IMG/VR virus record: IMGVR_UViG_3300045988_175328
Coordinates: 1 to 64,000 of that record
Origin: a virus
Direction: 5' to 3' (one strand)
DNA: 64,000 bases
The notes below the pieces were generated by a model that made no database searches, was not told the origin of the DNA, and was given only the letters and a program-made list of their open reading frames with translations. This document shows, one piece after another, positions 2,092 through 52,382 of the stretch (its first letter is position 1; every line of letters starts with the position of its first letter). The position numbers and the translations under genes are program-made.

Positions 2092-3120
2092 ATGAAAGAA
2101 AATTTAGAAGACTTACTCGGAGCTATATTTGAGAGCGTTGAAGAATCTGGAATTGAAGCTCCGAAAAAAGAAACGAAACCAAAGAAATCTAAAAAGCTTT
2201 GGATGCCTAAAGATATTAAAACATATCTTGATAAATCTGTTGTTAGTCAAGATTTAGCGAAGAAGCTTCTGTCGGTTGGTGTATGTAACCATGAACGAAT
2301 GCTTCAATTTAATGAATCTCGACAAGAAGATGATCCGATTATCGAGAAAGCAAATATCTTAATGGTTGGAACGACTGGTAGCGGTAAAAGTTTCTTACTT
2401 AAAGAGATCGCTAAAATTCTTGATAAACCAATCGTTATCGTATCTGCATCTGGATTAACTAAAACTGGCTATGTTGGTGAAGACGCAACTTCTATCGTTA
2501 ATCGATTATATGAAGTGGCTGGTCGAGACAAAGAACGTGCAGAACAAGGTATTATTTTTATCGATGAGTTCGATAAAATTTCGGCACAAAAGAATAGCAA
2601 TGGTTATCAAGGACAAGATATTGGCGGCCGCGATGTTCAATATGAATTATTAAAAATCATTGAAGGCACACAAGTACCAATTAAATCTAGTTTCGATATG
2701 CTAACGCCTATGGGTATTCAACCAGCCGAGATGATTGATACAAAAAATATTTTATTTATTTGCGGCGGAGCCTTTACTGGTATCGAGAAAAAAATCGAAA
2801 GTCGTATCCGCGGCACTAATGATATGATTTCCTTTAAACAATCGACAAATCTTGTCGAAGAAAAAGAAATCTATTCATATAATAATGTGATTGAACATAT
2901 TTCGACCGATGATTTTAAAGAATTTGGTATTATACCAGAACTTCTTGGTCGATTACCGATTATTTGTCCGTTACGTAATTTAACGATCGAAGATTTAAAA
3001 GATATTCTAACAAAACCTCAACATGCAACCATGAAACAAATTGAAAAATTGGCGTCGATGTACAATGTTAAGTTAGAATATGAAGACGAGTCAATTGAAT
3101 TAATTGCTAAGATAGCTTAT
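2092..3120 (+). CDS. clpX: ClpX-like AAA+ unfoldase, exon 1 (no zinc-binding N-domain)
   Basis: Walker A GTTGSGKS, Walker B IIFIDEFDKI, ELLGRLP motif. The frame hits TGA at 3121, just where ClpX proteins continue into the ...TGARGLRS sensor-2 region. That region is found at 4912 onward. Confidence 0.85.
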
Positions 3121-3611
3121 TGAAATGTCAAAATAATACTTACGATTTTAATCGCGAGATTTATTTTGGCAAACTAGTAAGGATGTTGGGAAACTAGCAT
3201 CTAGTGGCGGATTAAATCCGTCCAACGAAGACACTGAATTGCTGGAAACTCCTAAAGCTCAGAGTGCCAAGCCCCATAAAGGGTTAGGCTACGAAAGTAG
3301 AAACAAACTTTGAGATGGTATATGGTTAAATCCTAAGTACTCTAACAATGGACAATCAGCAGCGAAGCCGGTAGAACTATTTACTAGTACCGGAACGTTC
3401 AACGACTATTCCTCGTGAGGGAAGTACACTACAAGTAATTGGTAGTGGAAGTGGTGTCGCCTAAGTAGTATAGATTTATACTATATGGATAAGATATAGT
3501 CTGTGCCTTGGTGAAAGTCAAGGGTGCGGGTAGTGCCGCCGGTTAGAAAGTAGCGTTTCTAACTGAACGATCATCCTCTCGAATCGTCTTAAACGGTTCT
3601 ATATACTATAC
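3121..3611 (+). ncRNA. group I intron ribozyme core (5' part of the clpX element)
   Basis: P-like AATTGCTGGAAACT 3237-3250, Q-like CAATCAGCAGCG 3353-3364, R-like GTTCAACGACTAT 3397-3409, S-like AAGATATAGTC 3491-3501. These resemble the classical Tetrahymena and phage group I consensus elements. Confidence 0.8.
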
Positions 3612-3770
3612 AAAAACAGCCTACTTTGCTATAATAGTTTTATAAAAACTATTTAGGAAAGGAGGTTTGTCTCAATGATAAGAGCTATTAAACTAAGAGC
3701 TTATTTTACAAAGCATCAAGAAGAGCTAGTTGATAAAAATTTCAACTGTGTATGATTTATCTTTAACTAT

Positions 3771-4766
3771 ATGCTAGATTTAAAATCTAAGCTCTATAAA
3801 AGAACTGGTAAAAATCTTAGTTATAACGAAGCTTGTGCTATTTTAACTAAGCTTAAGTCTAGAAGACCTTGGCTAAAAGAAGATGATGCAGTTGCATTGC
3901 AACAAGTTATCAGAGATTTATTCAGTTCTTATGAAAGATTTTTTAATGGGGCTGGATACCCTAAGTTTAAAAGCTCTCGAGACAAACAATCCTATCGTAC
4001 TAATGTATATTCTTTAGATATTGAGAATAGTACAATTAAAATTCCTAAAGTAGGAGTTGTGAAATTTCGTGACAAATACAAATTTGAAGGTTTAATTCGA
4101 GTTCGAAATGTCACGATTTCAAGATCTAAATCTGGTAAATATTTTGCATCAGTCTGTATCGAAGTAGAAACCACACCTCTTGCGAAAACCAAGAAGAGTT
4201 GTGGTATCGATCTCGGGATAAAAGATTTATGCATATTATCAGATGGAACTAAGTTTGAGAATCCTAGATTTAGAACTTTGCCAGCTGCTAAACGTAGATT
4301 AAGATTTTTGCACAAAGCTTTGTCGCGTAAGGAGAAAGGATCTAAAAGCTGGGAAAGAGCTAGAATCAGACTCGCTAGAGAGTATGAACGTCTAGCTAAC
4401 ATACACTTAGATTATCTTCACAAGCTGACTACTTGGATCATTCAGAATTATGATTTTATATCAGTTGAAACCTTAAAGGTTAAGAACATGCTGAAGAATC
4501 GTAAATTAGCAAGAGCTATTAGCGATGCTGGTTGGTTTGAACTAGTTCGACAATTAGAGTATAAAGCAAATTGGTATGGCAAGCAGTTTGTTAAGATAAG
4601 TACATTTTACGCTTCTAGTCAAATCTGCTCTAGCTGTGGAGATAGAAATTCAGCCGTGAAAAAACTTTCTATTCGCGAATGGGAATGTCCTAGTTGCGGA
4701 GCTTATCATGATCGTGATTTGAACGCAGCGATTAACATTCTGAACGAAGGATTAAAACAAATATAA
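3771..4766 (+). CDS. tnpB: TnpB-like RNA-guided endonuclease (RuvC + zinc ribbon); N-terminus disturbed by an in-frame TGA
   Basis: Ruv[11 protein letters not shown], Ruv[14 protein letters not shown], zinc ribbon CSSCG...CPSCG, Ruv[16 protein letters not shown] stronger start (ATG 3675 behind AAAGGAGG) encodes MIRAIKLRAYFTKHQEELVDKNFNCV in the same frame, but is cut off by TGA at 3753-3755. Confidence 0.85.
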
Positions 4767-4911
4767 ATTTTGTACAGTATATAGAACCGCAGGACATGCG
4801 GGGATAGCCCATGGTATCTGATTTGTCAATGGAAATTGAAACTATGAAGGAGTAAATTCTAAACAATCTTGAATGGGAACCTCGTCACTTATTAGTGAGG
4901 GAGGATGTCAG
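4767..4911 (+). ncRNA. candidate TnpB omega RNA scaffold / right end; also the 3' terminal part of the intron
   Basis: Non-coding tail after tnpB with hairpins CCGCA-GGACA-TGCGG and CCTCgTCACT-TATT-AGTGAgGAGG, ending exactly at the 3' splice site. The 5' limit is uncertain and may lie inside the tnpB 3' end, as in known TnpB omega RNAs. Confidence 0.45.
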
Positions 4912-5082
4912 AATAGGGGTACCGGTGCTCGTGGATTACGAAGTATTGTAAGCTCTATTTTTGACCGAAAAGTCTTCGATATTAATAGCAGAACTAAAGT
5001 CGTTAAAATCACGAAACAGGATATTTTAGAATTATATGCGAAACAATTGGAGGACAGAGACAATGAAACAACAATCATTTGA
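4912..5082 (+). CDS. clpX: ClpX-like unfoldase, exon 2 (sensor-2 / C-terminal helices)
   Basis: NRGTGARGLRSIVSSIFDRKVFDI matches the conserved ClpX TGARGLRSI region. The frame is open only from 4873 and has no independent RBS. Confidence 0.8.
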   Translation, partial: NRGTGARGLRSIVSSIFDRKVFDINSRTKVVKITKQDILELYAKQLEDRDNETTII

Positions 5083-5869
5083 GTTAATCCACCGATATCT
5101 TAATCAATTAGAATCAGCTGAAACTATTACGCCAGAAGATATTGGCGCTATTTCAACGATTCTAGCAATTGAAAAAGAATACGGTGAGTTAACTGAATCT
5201 AAACCAAAACGGAAAACGAAAAAGAAAACTGAAACCGTAAAAGAAGTTGTCGAAGAAATTAAGGAAGAGCTTCCGAAAGAAGAAGAGAAAACTCAAGAAG
5301 TTCCTCAAGAAGAAATAACTCTAGAAGAAGTAAAAGAAGAGACTTCTGTTCAAGGACCAGAATCTATCGATACTCCTACTGAAGTTGAAGAATCTAAGGT
5401 TGAAGAGGTTCCGGCTGAAGAACCTACGAATTTCGATAACTTAACGAAAGATCCAGAAGAAACATTAACTCGTTTTAATGAAGATTATTTTGTTTCTAAA
5501 TACAAAAAAAATACGAAACGAGAAGATTTAACCGACGAGGAATTTGAAGAAGTTAAATTCTTAGCCGAAACCTTAAAACGTTATGCGAGCGAAGGCTCAG
5601 ATAACGTTAAAGAAATCAAGCAAGCTTTCGAAGAAATCCTCGAAGATGAAGATAAAGGTAAAGTAACTTTAAAAGAGATTACTCCATACTATCTTGAACA
5701 TCTTGTTAAGTACATTACAGTTAAGCAAAGTCTTAATAAATTTAAAGAAGAAGACATTGTTGCCACTTTAAAAGATATTTCTGGCGGCATGTTAAATTCT
5801 ATTACTGACCTTAATAGATATAATATTGAGGCAGTATCTAATATCTTAGAAGGAACTCTTAAAAATTAA
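5063..5869 (+). CDS. hypothetical acidic (Glu-rich) protein
   Basis: ORF with TTGGAGGA RBS before ATG 5063 (the track start 5036 is less likely). Long E/K/T-rich low-complexity centre. Confidence 0.6.
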   Translation: MKQQSFELIHRYLNQLESAETITPEDIGAISTILAIEKEYGELTESKPKRKTKKKTETVKEVVEEIKEELPKEEEKTQEVPQEEITLEEVKEETSVQGPESIDTPTEVEESKVEEVPAEEPTNFDNLTKDPEETLTRFNEDYFVSKYKKNTKREDLTDEEFEEVKFLAETLKRYASEGSDNVKEIKQAFEEILEDEDKGKVTLKEITPYYLEHLVKYITVKQSLNKFKEEDIVATLKDISGGMLNSITDLNRYNIEAVSNILEGTLKN

Positions 5870-9148: not shown

Positions 9149-9456
9149 TGACTGATGAAGAAATTATGCAAAGTTTAGTTTCATATATCGGAATGCTATC
9201 TTTACAATCTAAAGATACGCCGACGAATTTAAATAAAAGAATTATTGCAAATTTTATGTCTGTAATTCTTAATTTACTTGAAGCCGAAGGCGTTAATAAA
9301 GAAGAAGCTATCAAACCTTTGTATCCAGTAATCGTAAACTATTTAATCGAAAAGAATAATGTATTCAAAGAAGCTTCTGGTAAAGATAGTGAAACGTATA
9401 TCAATGCAATTAAGCTATTAAAGTCATTGGCAAAGAAAGAAGGTACGAATGGCTAG
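9148..9456 (+). CDS. hypothetical protein
   Basis: 102-aa ORF with an ATG overlapping the previous stop. Confidence 0.5.
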   Translation: MTDEEIMQSLVSYIGMLSLQSKDTPTNLNKRIIANFMSVILNLLEAEGVNKEEAIKPLYPVIVNYLIEKNNVFKEASGKDSETYINAIKLLKSLAKKEGTNG

Positions 9457-9709
9457 GAAGAAAGCTGTTGTTGTCGAAGAAGTATCGCATACGCTAACCG
9501 ACGAAGAAAAACGCAAACGAATCGATACGATTGCTTCGACAATCATGCAAAAGTCAAATATCGTCATCGGGCGATTAAGTGACGAAAAAGTCAAAGAAAA
9601 ACTTAAGATTGAATTCATCCCGACTCCGTCCGTTAATTTTAATGCAGCAACTGGAGGAGGGTTTCCAAAAGGAAAGATGACAATCTTATCAGGAACAGAA
9701 GATTCGGGT
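9449..9709 (+). CDS. recA: RecA-like recombinase, exon 1 (ends inside Walker A)
   Basis: ...GGGFPKGKMTILSGTEDSG then the frame dies. Joining to 9978 restores GTEDSGKTSL (Walker A GxxxxGKT). Confidence 0.8.
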
Positions 9710-9977
9710 AAGGTATTAAATTGCCCCTATAACTAGTAATAGTTAATAGAAAACTCTGTGATATGCTGGGAAACCGTCTAGGCAATCAGCAGGCAGCGTA
9801 CGTTTAATGTATTGCGCCCCAACGACTATCGAACACAGAATCTAATAAATGTTTTAGAGGATAAGTTAGTAGAGTACATTCGTTACGAATGGAAGCGCAG
9901 AGCATCTCATAACAAGGCTTGAGATGATGATATAGTCTAGTCCCCTAATAAATATCGGGAAACCGAGGGTGTTAACG
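9710..9977 (+). ncRNA. group I intron (ORF-less), recA intron 1
   Basis: Exon ends GGGU and pairs with GCCC at 9723-9726 (P1). P 9763-9775 ATGCTGGGAAACC, Q 9783-9793 CAATCAGCAGG, R 9817-9830 CCCCAACGACTATC, S 9929-9937 GATATAGTC. Last base is G (9977). Confidence 0.8.
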
Positions 9978-10288
9978 AAAACTTCATTAGTTCTTGAAAC
10001 AATTGGTAAATTGCATCGTGAAAATCCAGAAGGACATTTTGCCTTATGGATTGAAAGCGAAGCATCATTATCATTAGATTATTTAATTAACACATTCGGA
10101 ATTGATCCAGAGCGATTCTACTATATTCAGTACGATCGTGAACATGCAGCTGAAGATTGTTTAAATCAAGCCGAGGCTATTATTAATTCTGGTGTTATCG
10201 ATATCTTCTGTATTAATACTTTAAAAGCTCTTGTGCCTAAAAGCGAGATCCTTAAAAGTATGGAAGATGTTAGCGTGGCCTCCGGGTT
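9978..10288 (+). CDS. recA: RecA-like recombinase, exon 2 (3' limit uncertain, 10288-10304)
   Basis: KTSLVLETIGKL...ALWIESEASL...VIDIFCINTLKALVPKSEILKSMEDVSVASG is collinear with RecA GKTTLAL...IDAEHALD...[24 protein letters not shown]. Confidence 0.75.
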
Positions 10289-10656
10289 TTGGAAGGCATA
10301 TTGCGGTGACGCAGTGTGAAAACTTAGTAAATTGCTGGAATATCTTAATAATTTGTTAGCTACAACAGAATCTGTAAAGATAAATGTGAATGCAGTCGAA
10401 AGACAGAAAAAATAACAAATTTGTTGCAAGCTGAAAAAAAGCTTTTTTTAAAGTGCTAAACAACATTAACAATAGACAATCAGCAGCGAAGCCGACAAAG
10501 ATTTGTTGTCGGAACGTTCAGAGACTATCCTATAGCCACACGCTAAAATATAAATATGGCAACAGGAGTAGGGCCACTATGTGGTTGGTGAGATCCCATT
10601 AAATCGAAAAACTAAGCATCTTTTTTAAGATGATGATATAGTCCAAATCAGGCTTG
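10289..10656 (+). ncRNA. group I intron (ORF-less), recA intron 2 (boundaries +/- ~10 nt)
   Basis: P 10329-10341 AAATTGCTGGAAT, Q 10477-10488 CAATCAGCAGCG, R 10516-10530 GTTCAGAGACTATCC, S 10635-10644 GATATAGTCC. In-frame stops on both sides. Confidence 0.75.
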
Positions 10657-11266
10657 ATATTGCCAAGCCCGTCTTAATGCGACTTTTTGCCGGAAGTTCA
10701 TTCCATTAATCGATGAATTTAAAACAGCAATGATCTGCATCCAACATATGACAACCAATATTGGTTCTTTCAGTATGTATGGAGATAATTTAACATTAGC
10801 CGGTGGCAAAGCTATCCGAACAGCAGTAATGCTATGGGTAGACTTACGCAAAGGCTCGATTCTCGATACCGATCCAATTAAACGAGAAGAGGGTATTAAA
10901 GTAAACTGTACTGTACGGAAGAATCACTGTATTCCAGCTGAATTCCCATATCGTAAGTTTAGCTATTATGCCGTTTTCGGTCAAGGTATCGAACAAATTT
11001 TAAGTACTCTCGATGAGCTAGTAACTCAAGGAGTAATTAATAAAGCCGGTGCATGGCTTCAAGAAATTGATTACGAGACTGGTGAGATTCTCGACAAATG
11101 GAATGGTAAGAATGCCTTTCGTCAAGATATGCTAGATCATCCTGAAAAATTAAAACGATATATTGGTTTAATTCAAGGAACCTTTACTCAATTAACTAGC
11201 GAAGAAGTCGCTAAGTTAAAAGAAGAAGAGGCAAAAGGTGTAGAAGATGAACTCGAAGAAGAATAA
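10657..11266 (+). CDS. recA: RecA-like recombinase, exon 3
   Basis: (Y)CQARLNATFCRKF...ICIQHMTTNIGSFSMYGDNLTLAGGKAIRTAVMLWVDLRK is collinear with RecA LQARLMSQALRKL...IFINQ...[24 protein letters not shown]. Confidence 0.8.
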
Positions 11267-49453: not shown

Positions 49454-50575
49454 ATGAATTACAATAATATAACTCCAGAAATGGTTATGTCTATGGATTT
49501 ACAAGAGCTCGTAAAACTTGATTACGCTAAGCTTCCTGAAAAGTCAAAGCTTGCGGTAATTAAAAAAGACCCAGTTATGTGGGCTAAAGCTTTTATTTCT
49601 TCTTATTCAATTGAGCAAGAAGAATATGTTCCATGGACAGCCAGATGGTATCAAGCTGAAATGCTTAGAGATAGGAGTTTACGTAAAGTATATCGATGTG
49701 GTCGTCGGTGTATTGCCGGCGATACATTAATATATGATCCTGAAACTAATAGCTCTATTTCAGCTAAAGAATTGTTCGATACCCGACAGGATGATTTCTT
49801 TACAGTGGCTTGCTTGGATCATGATTTCAAAACAGAGCAGATGCCTCTAGCTAAAATATATGAAAATGGTGTAAAACAAGTATATACAATAACGACAGAA
49901 TACGATAAACAAATTACTGTTACAGAAAATCATCCATTCTTAACACAAGTAGGATGGAAAGAATTAAAACATCTTCGTGTTGGAAATTTAATTGCAGTCA
50001 TTCAAGACGAAGGTATTTTATCAAAGTATGTCGATATCGACAAACAAACAATTGAATTAATACAAAAAGAATTAAATAAAGAAGTAAGTATCGAAAGTTA
50101 TTCAGATCTAATGCTTTATGCAGAAGAGGCTGGACTTGAAACAGTTTACGATATTCTTGATGGCGATTTGGCATGGGAACGAATTAAATCAATTCGATTA
50201 CGTGGCACAGAAATGACATATGATGTGTCCGTACCAGAATATCATAATTTTATTGCGAATGGATTTATCACTCACAATACTGGTAAAACAGAAACAATGG
50301 TTATCGAAGCATTGTACAATTGTTTCACTCGAGATAACTTTGTTCATATGTTTGTAACGCCATACGAAAACCAAGTTCGATTAATTTTCGATAATTTAAA
50401 ATCTAAGATCGATTCCTCGCCAAGGATTCGAACAGCACTCACTCGGTCGACACGGTCGCCGTACGTGATGGAATTTAACAATAAATCAAAAATTGTTGGA
50501 TTTACAACGGGCGCAAGTTCTGGTAGTAGTGCTGCCTCTATCCGCGGATGGCGTAGTGACTGGATCTCACTCGAT
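49454..50575 (+). CDS. terL: terminase large subunit, exon 1 (contains the intein)
   Basis: After intein removal, YRCGRR|TGKTE gives Walker A GRRTGKT. Ends in the Walker B strand IRGWRSDWISLD. Confidence 0.85.
49709..50278 (+). mobile_element. mini-intein (190 aa) inserted in the TerL P-loop
   Basis: Starts CIAGDTLI (block A), TENH (block B-like TxxH), ends FITHN followed by +1 Thr. Too short for a LAGLIDADG or HNH endonuclease domain. Confidence 0.85.
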
Positions 50576-51250
50576 TAAATAATACTATTGTAATAGTTTA
50601 AATAGTCCATTTATTTGGTAACAAGTAAATGTTGAGTTAAATCTCAAGAGTCTATCTAATTGCTGGGAACCCCTAAAGCTTAAAGTGCCTTTGGGCTGCG
50701 AAAGCAGAAATAAATCTTTAAGATGATATATGGTTAAATCCTAAGTATTGTAAACAATGGGCAATCAGCAGCCAAGTTAGTATTATAATTAATATTAAAA
50801 GGTTCAACGACTATCCTGAGAAGGAGTACTATGTAAGCGCATAGGAAATGGTAGAAATCCTACAAAGGATTAAGATATAGTCTATGCTTTATCGAAAGAT
50901 AAAGGTGCGAGTAATGTCGCCGGCTAGAATTAGCGAATCTAGTTGAATTAATATCAGGAAATGGATAATTAAATAATAGTTCATTTAAAACGCCGTTAAA
51001 CAACGAAACTCCTAAGAAGGACAACGATGTACCAAGCTCATTAGTTAATAATGAGTAGTGTTCAACGACTAGGGATGAAATAAGCTCCCCACGAAAGCGG
51101 TGAAACCTACTACAGTCTTATCGTCAAGTTTTATTCTGTAGTACGGAAGACATAGTCTAAACTGGACCAGAACTGACTGGTCGATGAAAATGAAGGTAAC
51201 TTCCAGAGCGCAAGATAAAGAGCTTGCGGTTAATAACAAATTGTATCTAG
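50576..51250 (+). ncRNA. group I intron, terL intron A (boundaries +/- 3 nt), with a second degenerate core in its 3' half
   Basis: P 50658-50670, Q 50761-50773, R 50802-50816, S 50872-50882. The core aligns closely with the clpX intron. A second R-like GTTCAACGACTAG lies at 51060-51072 and a second S-like AAGACATAGTC at 51147-51157. Confidence 0.75.
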
Positions 51251-51379
51251 GTGAAGGTGATTTCGACACAGTATATGCTCTTTGTATGGAACGTGCTAGT
51301 ATCGGAATGACATGTTCATCGACACCAACCGGTAGACGATCTAAGTTTTATGACATTTGTACTCAGAAGAGCCTCGGGT
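51251..51379 (+). CDS. terL: terminase large subunit, exon 2
   Basis: (E)GDFDTVYALCMERASIGMTCSSTPTGRRSKFYDICTQKSLG is collinear with the T4 gp17 region ...ISSGRRSKIIITTTPNGLNHFYDIW. Confidence 0.75.
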
Positions 51380-51622
51380 TAAAAATGGCCCCAATATTAA
51401 GCAATTAATGATTGAAAACCTTTTGAAATGCTGGGACTTCCTTTAAGGAAAATCAGCAGCGAAGCTTCTTAAATTTAAGAAGAACGTTCAACGACTATCC
51501 CATTTGGGAGTAGGGTCAAGCGACTCGAAGCAGAAGGCGTCCTATTGGGACGAAGATATAGTCTGAGCTACATAGAGATATGTAGAAGGTTGCAAGTAGC
51601 GAATGCAATCGTAACAATACTG
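51380..51622 (+). ncRNA. group I intron (ORF-less), terL intron B
   Basis: Exon ends CGGGU and pairs with GCCC at 51388-51391. P 51425-51436, Q 51448-51460, R 51485-51499, S 51553-51563. Last base is G (51622). The splice gives KSLG-F-KEHY, cf. T4 GKSGFEPY. Confidence 0.8.
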
Positions 51623-52119
51623 TTAAAGAGCATTACCATCCCGCACAGCATAGTCCTCTATATTCTCCAGAAATGGAGAAAGAATTCAGGGCGACATTCG
51701 ATAAAAATGCGTATGTACATGAAGTACTTGCAGAATTTGGTATCGAAGAAGCTGGCGTGTTTGATAAAGAAGCTCTCGAAAGAGCGACTCGCATGGACAA
51801 TTATGTCTATAATGACGAGATCAAACCGGTACATAATGAATTTAATTTGCGCTCAGCAAAGAAAATTCACCTTCTTCCAGAAGGACAAACTACATATAAG
51901 TATAACATGTATAGAACTATGGCAGTTGACTGGGATAAATCGCAGGCGCCAACTTCTATACTCGTCTTAGATTATGACCACGAATGGAATAAATTCCGGG
52001 TCATTAATCGAACTATGATCGAGCCATCAGATTTTCATTATGACTTGGCGGTAAAAAAGATCATTAATTTAAATGCTATATATAATCCTACTCATATCTA
52101 TATTGATAGGGGCGCAGGT
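51623..52119 (+). CDS. terL: terminase large subunit, exon 3
   Basis: KEHYHPAQHSPLYSPEMEKEFRATFDKNAYVHEVLAEF...IYIDRGAG. The frame is open only from 51586 and ends at TAA 52123. Confidence 0.75.
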
Positions 52120-52382
52120 AAGTAACTTGCCTCAATATAAAGAAAGCACATATATTTATATTGGATAATGCGGAATTAAGCGAGAACTCTAAGTTAAATA
52201 ATATGAGAACTCGAACCGAAGGCATTGCTAAGTAATGTCAGGGGCAGAGCATAGAAGTTGAAAAGATATAATACTTCCACGAGTCCGCATCACAGTTGTG
52301 CTATTATACTGTGAAAAAATATGCCGAACTTACAGGAAACTATAAGAACTACAAGATAAAAAACTTGTAGGATAACAAATTG
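52120..52382 (+). ncRNA. 263-nt intervening sequence of unclear class, terL intron C
   Basis: Joining 52119 (U) to 52383 (after a G) gives IYIDRGAG|EYQIEAL. It lacks the AATCAGCAG / GTTCAACGACTAT / GATATAGTC set of the other introns. It has ATGCGGA (52168-52174) / TCCGCAT (52284-52290) pairing and several hairpins. Confidence 0.5.

Follow-up and report, generated by a model that had tools for sequence, protein, structure and literature searches.

The locus described here raises the question of why a phage clpX gene is split by an insert that holds both a group I intron and a tnpB gene, and whether an RNA-guided nuclease could copy that insert into intact clpX genes. It lies in a 64,000-nt stretch of viral DNA (IMG/VR record IMGVR_UViG_3300045988_175328, positions 1 to 64,000; hereafter the window), which is part of a ~227-kb genome represented by the 227,241-bp contig ENA ERZ27276323 k141_26322. 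The window is phage-like and AT-rich (33% G+C), and its long open reading frames (ORFs) lie almost all on the + strand, as do the mapped parts of clpX and its insert. A preliminary description had proposed that the guide of a TnpB omega RNA equals the first bases of clpX exon 2 and that the RNA drives intron homing during mixed infection. Our analysis makes it highly probable that the insert, at 3121-4911, is a group A (IS200/IS605-type) IStron whose predicted guide is the start of exon 2, and that this particular copy is a non-autonomous, still-spliceable relic.

The limits of the insert were set by the clpX reading frame. The clpP gene occupies 1534-2082, and clpX exon 1 follows at 2092-3120 with 343 codons, as judged from the ORF list, Pfam AAA_2/AAA matches and agreement with an uninterrupted ClpX (P0001). 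The sequence GCTTAT, which the preliminary description had also placed at 3115-3120, closes exon 1 in frame and is followed by a TGA stop at 3121. The insert ends in GGAGGATGTCAG, the last base of which is 4911, and AATAGGGGTACCGGTG begins at 4912, the first base of exon 2 (4912-5082; 56 codons plus stop), which was delimited by the ORF list and by alignment to uninterrupted ClpX. The first ten codons of exon 2, AAT AGG GGT ACC GGT GCT CGT GGA TTA CGA, encode NRGTGARGLR. Joining 3120 to 4912 in silico yielded a ClpX of 399 aa with the junction TAT/AAT. P0001, which came from a search of 5.8 billion proteins and is encoded by related ~220-kb phage contigs, is likewise 399 aa long, is 97% identical, and reads IAKIAY/NRGTGARGLR at the junction (longer stretch, IELIAKIAYNRGTGARGLRSIV). 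Its 90%-identity cluster has 26 members; among the 15 listed, 13 are of 399 aa, one is of 396 aa, and only one is the 343-aa exon-1 product that the window encodes. Because the joined exons equal the uninterrupted ClpX of sister phages, the insert is exactly 3121-4911 (1,791 bp), and the sequence statements of the preliminary description, its coordinates and flanks included, are confirmed. The ends of the element coincide with the splice sites, U3120/U3121 and G4911/A4912, in agreement with the U and G rules for such sites. Removal of the element in silico thus recreates the sister-phage protein, and splicing is predicted to restore clpX. Comparison with vacant alleles revealed no target duplication.

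The internal organization of the insert identifies its class. A group I intron catalytic core (3139-3523), which matches the full Rfam model RF00028 (1-253) with 74.4 bits where the gathering score is 50, is followed by a GAACGA motif (3565-3570) and, after a gap of only ~150 nt from the core, by tnpB (3675-4766). IStrons, first known in 2000, were the subject of a survey in 2014 (PMC4227781). Those of group A combine a group I intron with an IS200/IS605 ORF B located 3' of the core and of a GAACGA-type motif, with inverted repeats that enclose the ORF, a TTGAT, ATTAT or TTTAT target, and a TCAG terminus (PMC4227781); the IS part of published IStrons begins 3' of the GAACGA motif (PMC4227781). 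All of the published group A hallmarks were seen in the clpX insert: it follows the T-rich target CTTAT, ends in TCAG, contains GAACGA, has palindromes near its ends, and encloses its ORF in an inverted-repeat stem. As read from the sequence, the left palindrome, CTTACGATT-TT-AATCGCGAG (3139-3158), forms a hairpin in the P1/P2 region; homologous hairpins are present in sibling elements, and a similar one lies at the right end. The stem that loops out tnpB pairs a 5' arm at 3594-3615 with a 3' arm at 4768-4789 (predicted energy, -32 kcal/mol). This long-range helix recurs with other sequence, and with covariation, in 19 relatives.

The relatives collected for comparison comprise 27 viral-contig loci with TnpBs 36-60% identical to that of the window, and the close siblings have TnpBs that are 80-92% identical and 363-365 aa long, on ~220-kb phage contigs of the same clade. 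Relatives and siblings share a non-coding block 3' of tnpB that terminates in GAGGATGTCAG (with minor variants), and the flanks beyond it are unrelated to one another. When 25 related elements were aligned at their right ends (alignment A2 for the pairing statistics), similarity ended exactly at GGATGTCAG, column conservation fell to zero after GTCAG, and all but two of the 25 right ends finished in CAG. The right-end boundary is therefore G4911, and the guide position begins at 4912, as the preliminary description had supposed when it assigned that position to the first bases of exon 2. Conservation, frame restoration and the TCAG rule together mark G4911, the terminal G of TCAG, as right-end boundary, 3' splice site and last nucleotide of the scaffold.

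The same alignment supports the view that the block, the final ~145 nt of the element, is a conserved, covarying omega-RNA-like scaffold. It begins with a nexus-like stem-loop, CCGCA-GGACA-UGCGG (4787-4801), in which the five pairs are 99% paired across the 25 sequences and three show compensatory changes. A central domain with a variable interior follows (4808-4877; stems 4808-4812/4873-4877 and 4820-4823/4865-4868), with compensatory changes in eight of its nine pairs. The right-end hairpin CCUCGUCACU-UAUU-AGUGAGGGAGG (4880-4904) serves at once as subterminal palindrome and as the final stem of the scaffold, and the UGUC tail at 4906-4909 is predicted to form a pseudoknot with the nexus loop GACA (4793-4796), a helix that is 95% paired. 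Over 22 scaffold pairs, 96.9% of the cells were paired, compared with 86% in column shuffles and 34-47% when the partners were slid. Compensatory changes were found in 15 of these 22 pairs, including pseudoknot pair 44-200 (numbering of alignment A2), which is A-U 21 times, G-C three times and G-U once, and the observed covariation score was reached by none of 500 shuffles. As a correction to the preliminary description, which gave the region as 4767-4930, the scaffold was mapped within 4767-4911, and the 5' end of the RNA may lie inside tnpB.

The block might instead be intron periphery joined to a transposase-binding right end with no guide role, in which case the match between guide and exon 2 would be trivial, since the guide of any insertion equals its flank by construction. 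Several results count in favor of this alternative and against an omega RNA. The single-sequence fold of the block is not unusually stable (z = -1.2), and an Rfam scan of the block returned no family at E <= 1, so that its identification as an omega RNA depends on architecture and covariation. Furthermore, the right-end hairpin would covary as a DNA hairpin recognized by TnpA as well, which leaves the pseudoknot and the nexus stem as the only helices that speak specifically for a role as RNA. Those two helices, however, do covary, the pair between nexus loop and 3' tail having changed from A-U to G-C in three sequences and the nexus stem containing three covarying pairs. The arrangement of three stem-loops with a pseudoknot between nexus and 3' end, followed by the guide, is also the layout reported for the omega RNAs of IS605, IS607 and IStron elements. 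Finally, the same block follows tnpB in the intron-less family members L006-L011 and L013-L020, which argues that it belongs to tnpB and not to the intron. We therefore consider a block without guide function to be very improbable.

Three of these intron-less loci, L013, L016 and L019 (IMG/VR contigs of 83-212 kb), carry tnpB and the right-end scaffold within arrays of tRNA genes. In these loci, which have no recognizable intron or left end, the ribosome-binding site of tnpB lies ~30 nt past the end of a tRNA, and their right-end variant, GGUGCCAG, includes a compensating change in the pseudoknot.

We take the guide to be 16 nt long, a length carried over from ISDra2 TnpB. With this length, the predicted guide and its target are AATAGGGGTACCGGTG at 4912-4927, an assignment made by position. 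The flanks of sibling elements at this place are mutually unrelated, and the sequence after G4911 varies freely between insertions, as a guide should. On the other side of the insert, the pentanucleotide CTTAT (3116-3120) is the transposon target and contains the predicted target-adjacent motif (TAM), with TTAT as its core. Nine insertions of the subfamily were compared: the element is preceded by CTTAT in the window, TCTAT in L075, ACTAT in L077 and L005, ATTAT in L078 and L017, and TTTAT in L080, L084 and L072. The consensus directly before the element is YTAT, and a second subfamily has NTGAT. The predicted TAM of the family is thus YTAT, which accommodates the TTAT-type motif noted in the preliminary description.

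The same bases probably have a third role. CUUAU at the end of exon 1 would be the 5' strand of helix P1, with the 5' splice site after U3120, and its partner would be an internal guide sequence, GUAAG, at 3177-3181, with a G3177·U3120 wobble at the splice site. In the nine insertions, a GURRG motif located ~57 nt into the intron pairs with flank positions -1 to -4. TAM position -4 and motif position 4 combine U with A six times and C with G three times, with no mismatch, and we infer that GURRG is the internal guide sequence and that P1 is formed by the TAM bases. If so, the four bases YTAT serve as transposon target, TAM and P1 partner at once. Against the assignment is the distance of ~55 nt that would separate the internal guide sequence from the splice site, as is the small number of independent changes (two or three) on which it is based. 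A P10 pairing with exon 2 was also sought and rejected; only a 3-bp CUA/UAG match was found, which is offset by two bases and does not covary across the insertions.

Vacant clpX alleles show what the predicted guide would meet. A GenBank search for near-identical phages matched only a 56-nt intron fragment in Staphylococcus phages, and the nearest phage ClpX proteins found were ~40-45% identical. An IMG/VR protein search for vacant or occupied clpX alleles returned distant ClpX only, and exact and degenerate junction patterns had no match in viral or metagenome contigs. The alleles were obtained through protein cluster look-ups, which yielded nine distinct vacant haplotypes. One of them, L086, reads CTTAT followed by AATAGGGGTACCGGTGCTCG, a perfect TAM and a perfect match to 20 nt of target, so that the intron-less clpX postulated earlier, with TTAT directly before the target, exists in nature. 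The eight others have two synonymous changes, which give CATAT before the target and an A at its position 6, with zero to three further mismatches in the first 16 nt; the L085-type allele, for example, is CATAT followed by AATAGAGG. These eight are predicted to be poor substrates, since ATAT replaces YTAT and position 6 is mismatched. In the occupied allele the target follows GTCAG, and it should be protected because TCAG stands in place of the TAM.

The alleles closest to the window overall, L083 and L085 (95-96% nucleotide identity), differ from it between -40 and +36 at -4 and +6 alone, and at these two positions the window matches only L086. These are the only two sites informative for a co-conversion tract, and the pattern could reflect a short tract of that kind or escape mutations, or the element may have entered a TTAT haplotype that is rare. 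The segment of clpX that comprises the TAM and 16 nt of target ranks in the top ~5% of equivalent gene segments for mismatches to vacant alleles, and the corresponding segment of clpP, at the site of the IStron in L072, no higher than the top ~12%. In the vacant alleles the target carries a marginal excess of mismatches, and we do not claim selection; this, like the poor match of the eight haplotypes, detracts from the case for RNA-guided homing.

The nuclease gene itself bears more heavily on homing. The tnpB gene has 363 codons and a ribosome-binding site upstream. Its product matches the Pfam domains HTH_OrfB_IS605, OrfB_IS605 and Cas12f1-like TNB, and it matches the ISDra2 TnpB structure 8bf8 with E = 3e-87. 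Codon 27 (3753-3755), however, is an in-frame TGA, which the preliminary description overlooked, and the longest open part is 3771-4766 (331 aa). Arginine occupies this position in all 11 relatives, encoded by AGA or CGG in the four siblings checked at the DNA level, and the TGA is present in all five contigs that carry the clpX insertion. These contigs come from different samples and are otherwise essentially identical, that is, one near-clonal lineage. Sequencing error was ruled out as the cause, since the same TGA was found in five contigs from different samples. Recoding of TGA was ruled out as well: of the 60 long ORFs in the window, 7 terminate with TGA, the sole tRNA there is Thr(UGU), and arginine is aligned in all relatives. 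By its sequence, then, the gene has the motifs of a functional TnpB-omega RNA nuclease but not the complete ORF. Because the stop is present throughout the lineage, this copy probably does not encode an autonomous nuclease, and no second tnpB or right end was found in the 64-kb window. The idea of RNA-guided intron homing is therefore supported only in part, by the guide position, the TAM and the scaffold but not by the nuclease gene of this copy.

Apart from codon 27 the gene is intact. The columns invariant in 12 sequences are kept, including the aligned RuvC motifs DLG, VETL and HDRD and both CxxC pairs. Differences from the tnpB genes of siblings fall mainly on third codon positions (73 of 112 for L075); this predominance suggests purifying selection until recently, and the inactivation thus appears to be recent. 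The TGA may still be read through at a low level, or translation may start again at M33, and either would weaken the view of this copy as a relic. A stronger form of this idea holds that the clpX element is an active homing drive today, its own TnpB (the product of UGA readthrough or the 331-aa product starting at M33) cutting intron-less clpX in mixed infections. The otherwise intact ORF with its catalytic motifs is in keeping with such a drive, as are the intact scaffold, which shares ~90% identity with the scaffold of a sibling whose TnpB is intact, and the natural vacant allele that matches the TAM and 20 nt of target perfectly. Against these stand the stop in every contig of the lineage, the normal use of TGA as a stop codon, and the finding of no suppressor tRNA within the 64-kb window. 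The 331-codon remainder (P0123) has no evident Shine-Dalgarno-like sequence before its ATG at 3771, and its product would lack nearly all of HTH_OrfB_IS605, which covers residues 1-46. In addition, the occupied allele is found in one near-clonal lineage compared with nine vacant haplotypes, which is unlike a sweeping drive. An active drive in this copy is, in our view, quite unlikely.

We most likely have before us a self-splicing passenger that has become a non-autonomous, still-spliceable relic, given the stop at codon 27 and the lack of tnpA in the element, and that could be mobilized only by a sibling TnpB in trans. Within the same phage clade, sibling elements occupy five other genes or sites, and the different locations of siblings with an intact 363-aa TnpB (80-92% identical) indicate that the family has been mobile. 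The clpX insertion can be explained without homing between phages: a TnpA provided in trans, whether by the host or by some other element, would have moved the IStron by single-strand transposition into an allele that happened to carry TTAT, and TnpB with its omega RNA would only ever have served to restore the element after excision. Insertion at many unrelated sites, always after YTAT or NTGAT, and subterminal hairpins at both ends are signatures of IS200/IS605 transposition. Of the vacant alleles, only the rare L086 has the T at -4 and G at +6 of the occupied haplotype, which fits insertion into a pre-existing TTAT haplotype. On the other hand, no tnpA was found between the ends of the element or within any IStron copy examined, and the interval between core and tnpB is short. 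Moreover, without TnpA there is no excision to repair, so that retention cannot explain the intact TnpB of the siblings, and IStrons lacking TnpA could spread by intron homing (PMC13565253). We regard transposition by a foreign TnpA as a possible, but not the probable, history of the locus; it is compatible with the explanation that this copy is a relic.

A bolder reading assigns the siblings a larger part, with IStrons acting as RNA-guided gene drives between co-infecting phages of ~220-230 kb, sibling TnpBs loading the clpX omega RNA in trans, and the changes in vacant alleles being escape mutations. We think this unlikely. If it were true, the synonymous changes that most vacant alleles show at TAM position -4 and target position 6 of clpX would have been selected as an escape from RNA-guided cleavage. 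Those in clpP, at TAM position -3 and at positions 1 and 4 of the target, would have the same origin, and an arms race between guide RNA and target would be recorded in third codon positions.

Two related IStrons are located in clpP. Locus L072 (ENA ERZ28644301 scaffold_19), from a sister phage, has a vacant clpX and, at 3721-5606, a different IStron in clpP. This element is 1,886 bp long, encodes a 419-aa TnpB, lies after TTTAT and ends in TTCAG. Its intron part is 74.5% identical to the window intron over 436 nt by BLAST; an Rfam scan of L072 at the gathering threshold detected no intron, which we take as a filter miss given the BLAST match. The clpP gene of the window is vacant at the L072 site, where the would-be target has three mismatches among its first 16 nt. 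Locus L084 (ENA ERZ27318958 k141_408045) has a sibling IStron at ~175-1944 with a 363-aa TnpB and an intron 82% identical to that of the window. It is inserted after TTTAT inside the clpP start codon (AT/G), which would exist only once the intron is spliced.

For the clpX element, we envisage that a transcript running from the element into exon 2 could adopt either of two folds. In one, the stem between 3594-3615 and 4768-4789 would loop out tnpB and bring the 3' splice site to the intron core, and splicing would restore clpX. In the other, the omega RNA with guide AATAGGGGTACCGGTG would form. The two folds are expected to compete, as the 3' arm of the stem overlaps the first three bases of the nexus stem, which fits the antagonism shown for CboIStron. 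Given a working TnpB, that RNA would direct cutting of TTAT followed by AATAGGGG in an unoccupied clpX, and repair from an occupied genome would either insert a copy of the element, which is homing, or bring the element back once it had been excised. Splicing, accumulation of the omega RNA and cleavage are all inferred from sequence here, and this also has to be set against the proposed scheme.

Two observations on folding and expression touch on this scheme. The predicted duplex of 3585-3616 with 4767-4796 runs past the 22-bp inverted-repeat stem, and by energy prediction only, GUCU at ~3586-3589 can pair with GGAC of the nexus loop, bases that the pseudoknot with the 3' tail also uses; this hints at a three-way competition of folds. 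Upstream of tnpB, a consensus scan detected a putative promoter, TATACA-17-TATAAT with a TG extension (3607-3635; 10 of 12 matches), of which TGYTATAAT is kept in four close siblings. The extended -10 (TGCTATAAT or TGTTATAAT) lies at 3627-3635, ~40 nt 5' of tnpB, and is common to the window and L075, L077, L078 and L080; its conservation suggests that tnpB and the omega RNA can be transcribed from inside the intron, independently of clpX.

Other group I introns were detected in the window. A recA-like gene at 9449-11266 is apparently in three pieces, with two such introns (9700-9959 and 10272-10666; RF00028, 60.5 and 55.5 bits), and the pieces at 9449-9736 and 9969-10319 match Pfam RecA. The region 49454-52125 contains two more (50605-50904 and 51370-51585; 86 and 91 bits), downstream of an ORF with an intein splicing domain (PF14890, E = 2e-22); parts of the clpX intron share 74-77% identity with the intron at 50658-50947.

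How much of this is new can be judged from published IStrons. RNA-guided cleavage, retention and the conflict with splicing have been shown for an IS607-type IStron and proposed for the IS605 type (10.1101/2023.11.20.567912), and a 2026 review describes how TnpA-less IStrons with an active TnpB can spread by intron homing and how both junctions have a triple role (PMC13565253). Since RNA-guided homing of IStrons had already been published, the earlier homing hypothesis is a correct rediscovery at a new locus. RNA-guided intron homing between phages has been proposed in reviews, and no report of it was found in the literature searched. The clpX copy alone is an ordinary, decaying member of a described class. 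What is new is the multiplication of a family of group A IStrons within one clade of ~220-230-kb phages, with natural pairs of occupied and vacant alleles, a perfect vacant target among them, and covariation between TAM and P1. If a sibling with an intact TnpB converted vacant alleles in mixed infection, this would be natural RNA-guided intron homing between phages. The clade is unusually good material for a test, with occupied and vacant alleles of the same sites, several sibling guides, one vacant allele that is a perfect target, and others with synonymous changes only in the TAM and the TAM-proximal target.

The closest known counterparts are CdISt1 of Clostridioides difficile and its group A relatives (PMC4227781), which share the 5' group I intron, ORF B after the core and GAACGA, the inverted-repeat stem, the TCAG terminus and the subterminal palindromes; variants without ORF A are common among them, and copies lie in unrelated protein-coding genes. 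The clpX element differs in residing in a ~227-kb phage, whereas the phage IStrons of the survey are group B elements of C. botulinum phages, and also in its CTTAT target (family YTAT), its nonsense codon in tnpB, and its stem of ~22 bp, compared with 6-10 bp reported (PMC4227781). The TnpB-omega RNA system of ISDra2 (8bf8, 8exa, 8h1j) aligns with the clpX-element TnpB over residues 4-360 and has the same RuvC and zinc-finger motifs. In both, the guide RNA comes from the right end with its guide just outside, and the TAM is the transposon's own target motif, features that are predicted for the clpX element. It differs from ISDra2 in its predicted TAM (YTAT as opposed to TTGAT), the absence of TnpA, the fusion to an intron and the ORF broken at codon 27.

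CboIStron of Clostridium botulinum (IS607-type; 10.1101/2023.11.20.567912) also has splice sites that coincide with the transposon ends and a guide directly after the 3' splice site. A transcript of that element can be spliced or can form the guide RNA, but not both, in line with the overlap between inverted repeat and nexus stem described above, and its TnpB cuts vacant sites and aids retention. Unlike the clpX element, CboIStron belongs to group B, with a serine-recombinase TnpA, a TGGG TAM and a CGG terminus, and its activities were measured, whereas the clpX element is known from sequence alone. Phage group I introns with protein homing endonucleases, such as T4 td with I-TevI, resemble the clpX element as self-splicing introns in conserved phage genes that are polymorphic among related phages. 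Their spread is likewise expected to follow from cutting of alleles that lack the intron when infections are mixed, and to co-convert the flanks. In the clpX element, by contrast, an RNA guide and a 4-nt TAM would recognize the target in place of a DNA-binding protein, and the element can reach new sites as a transposon as well.

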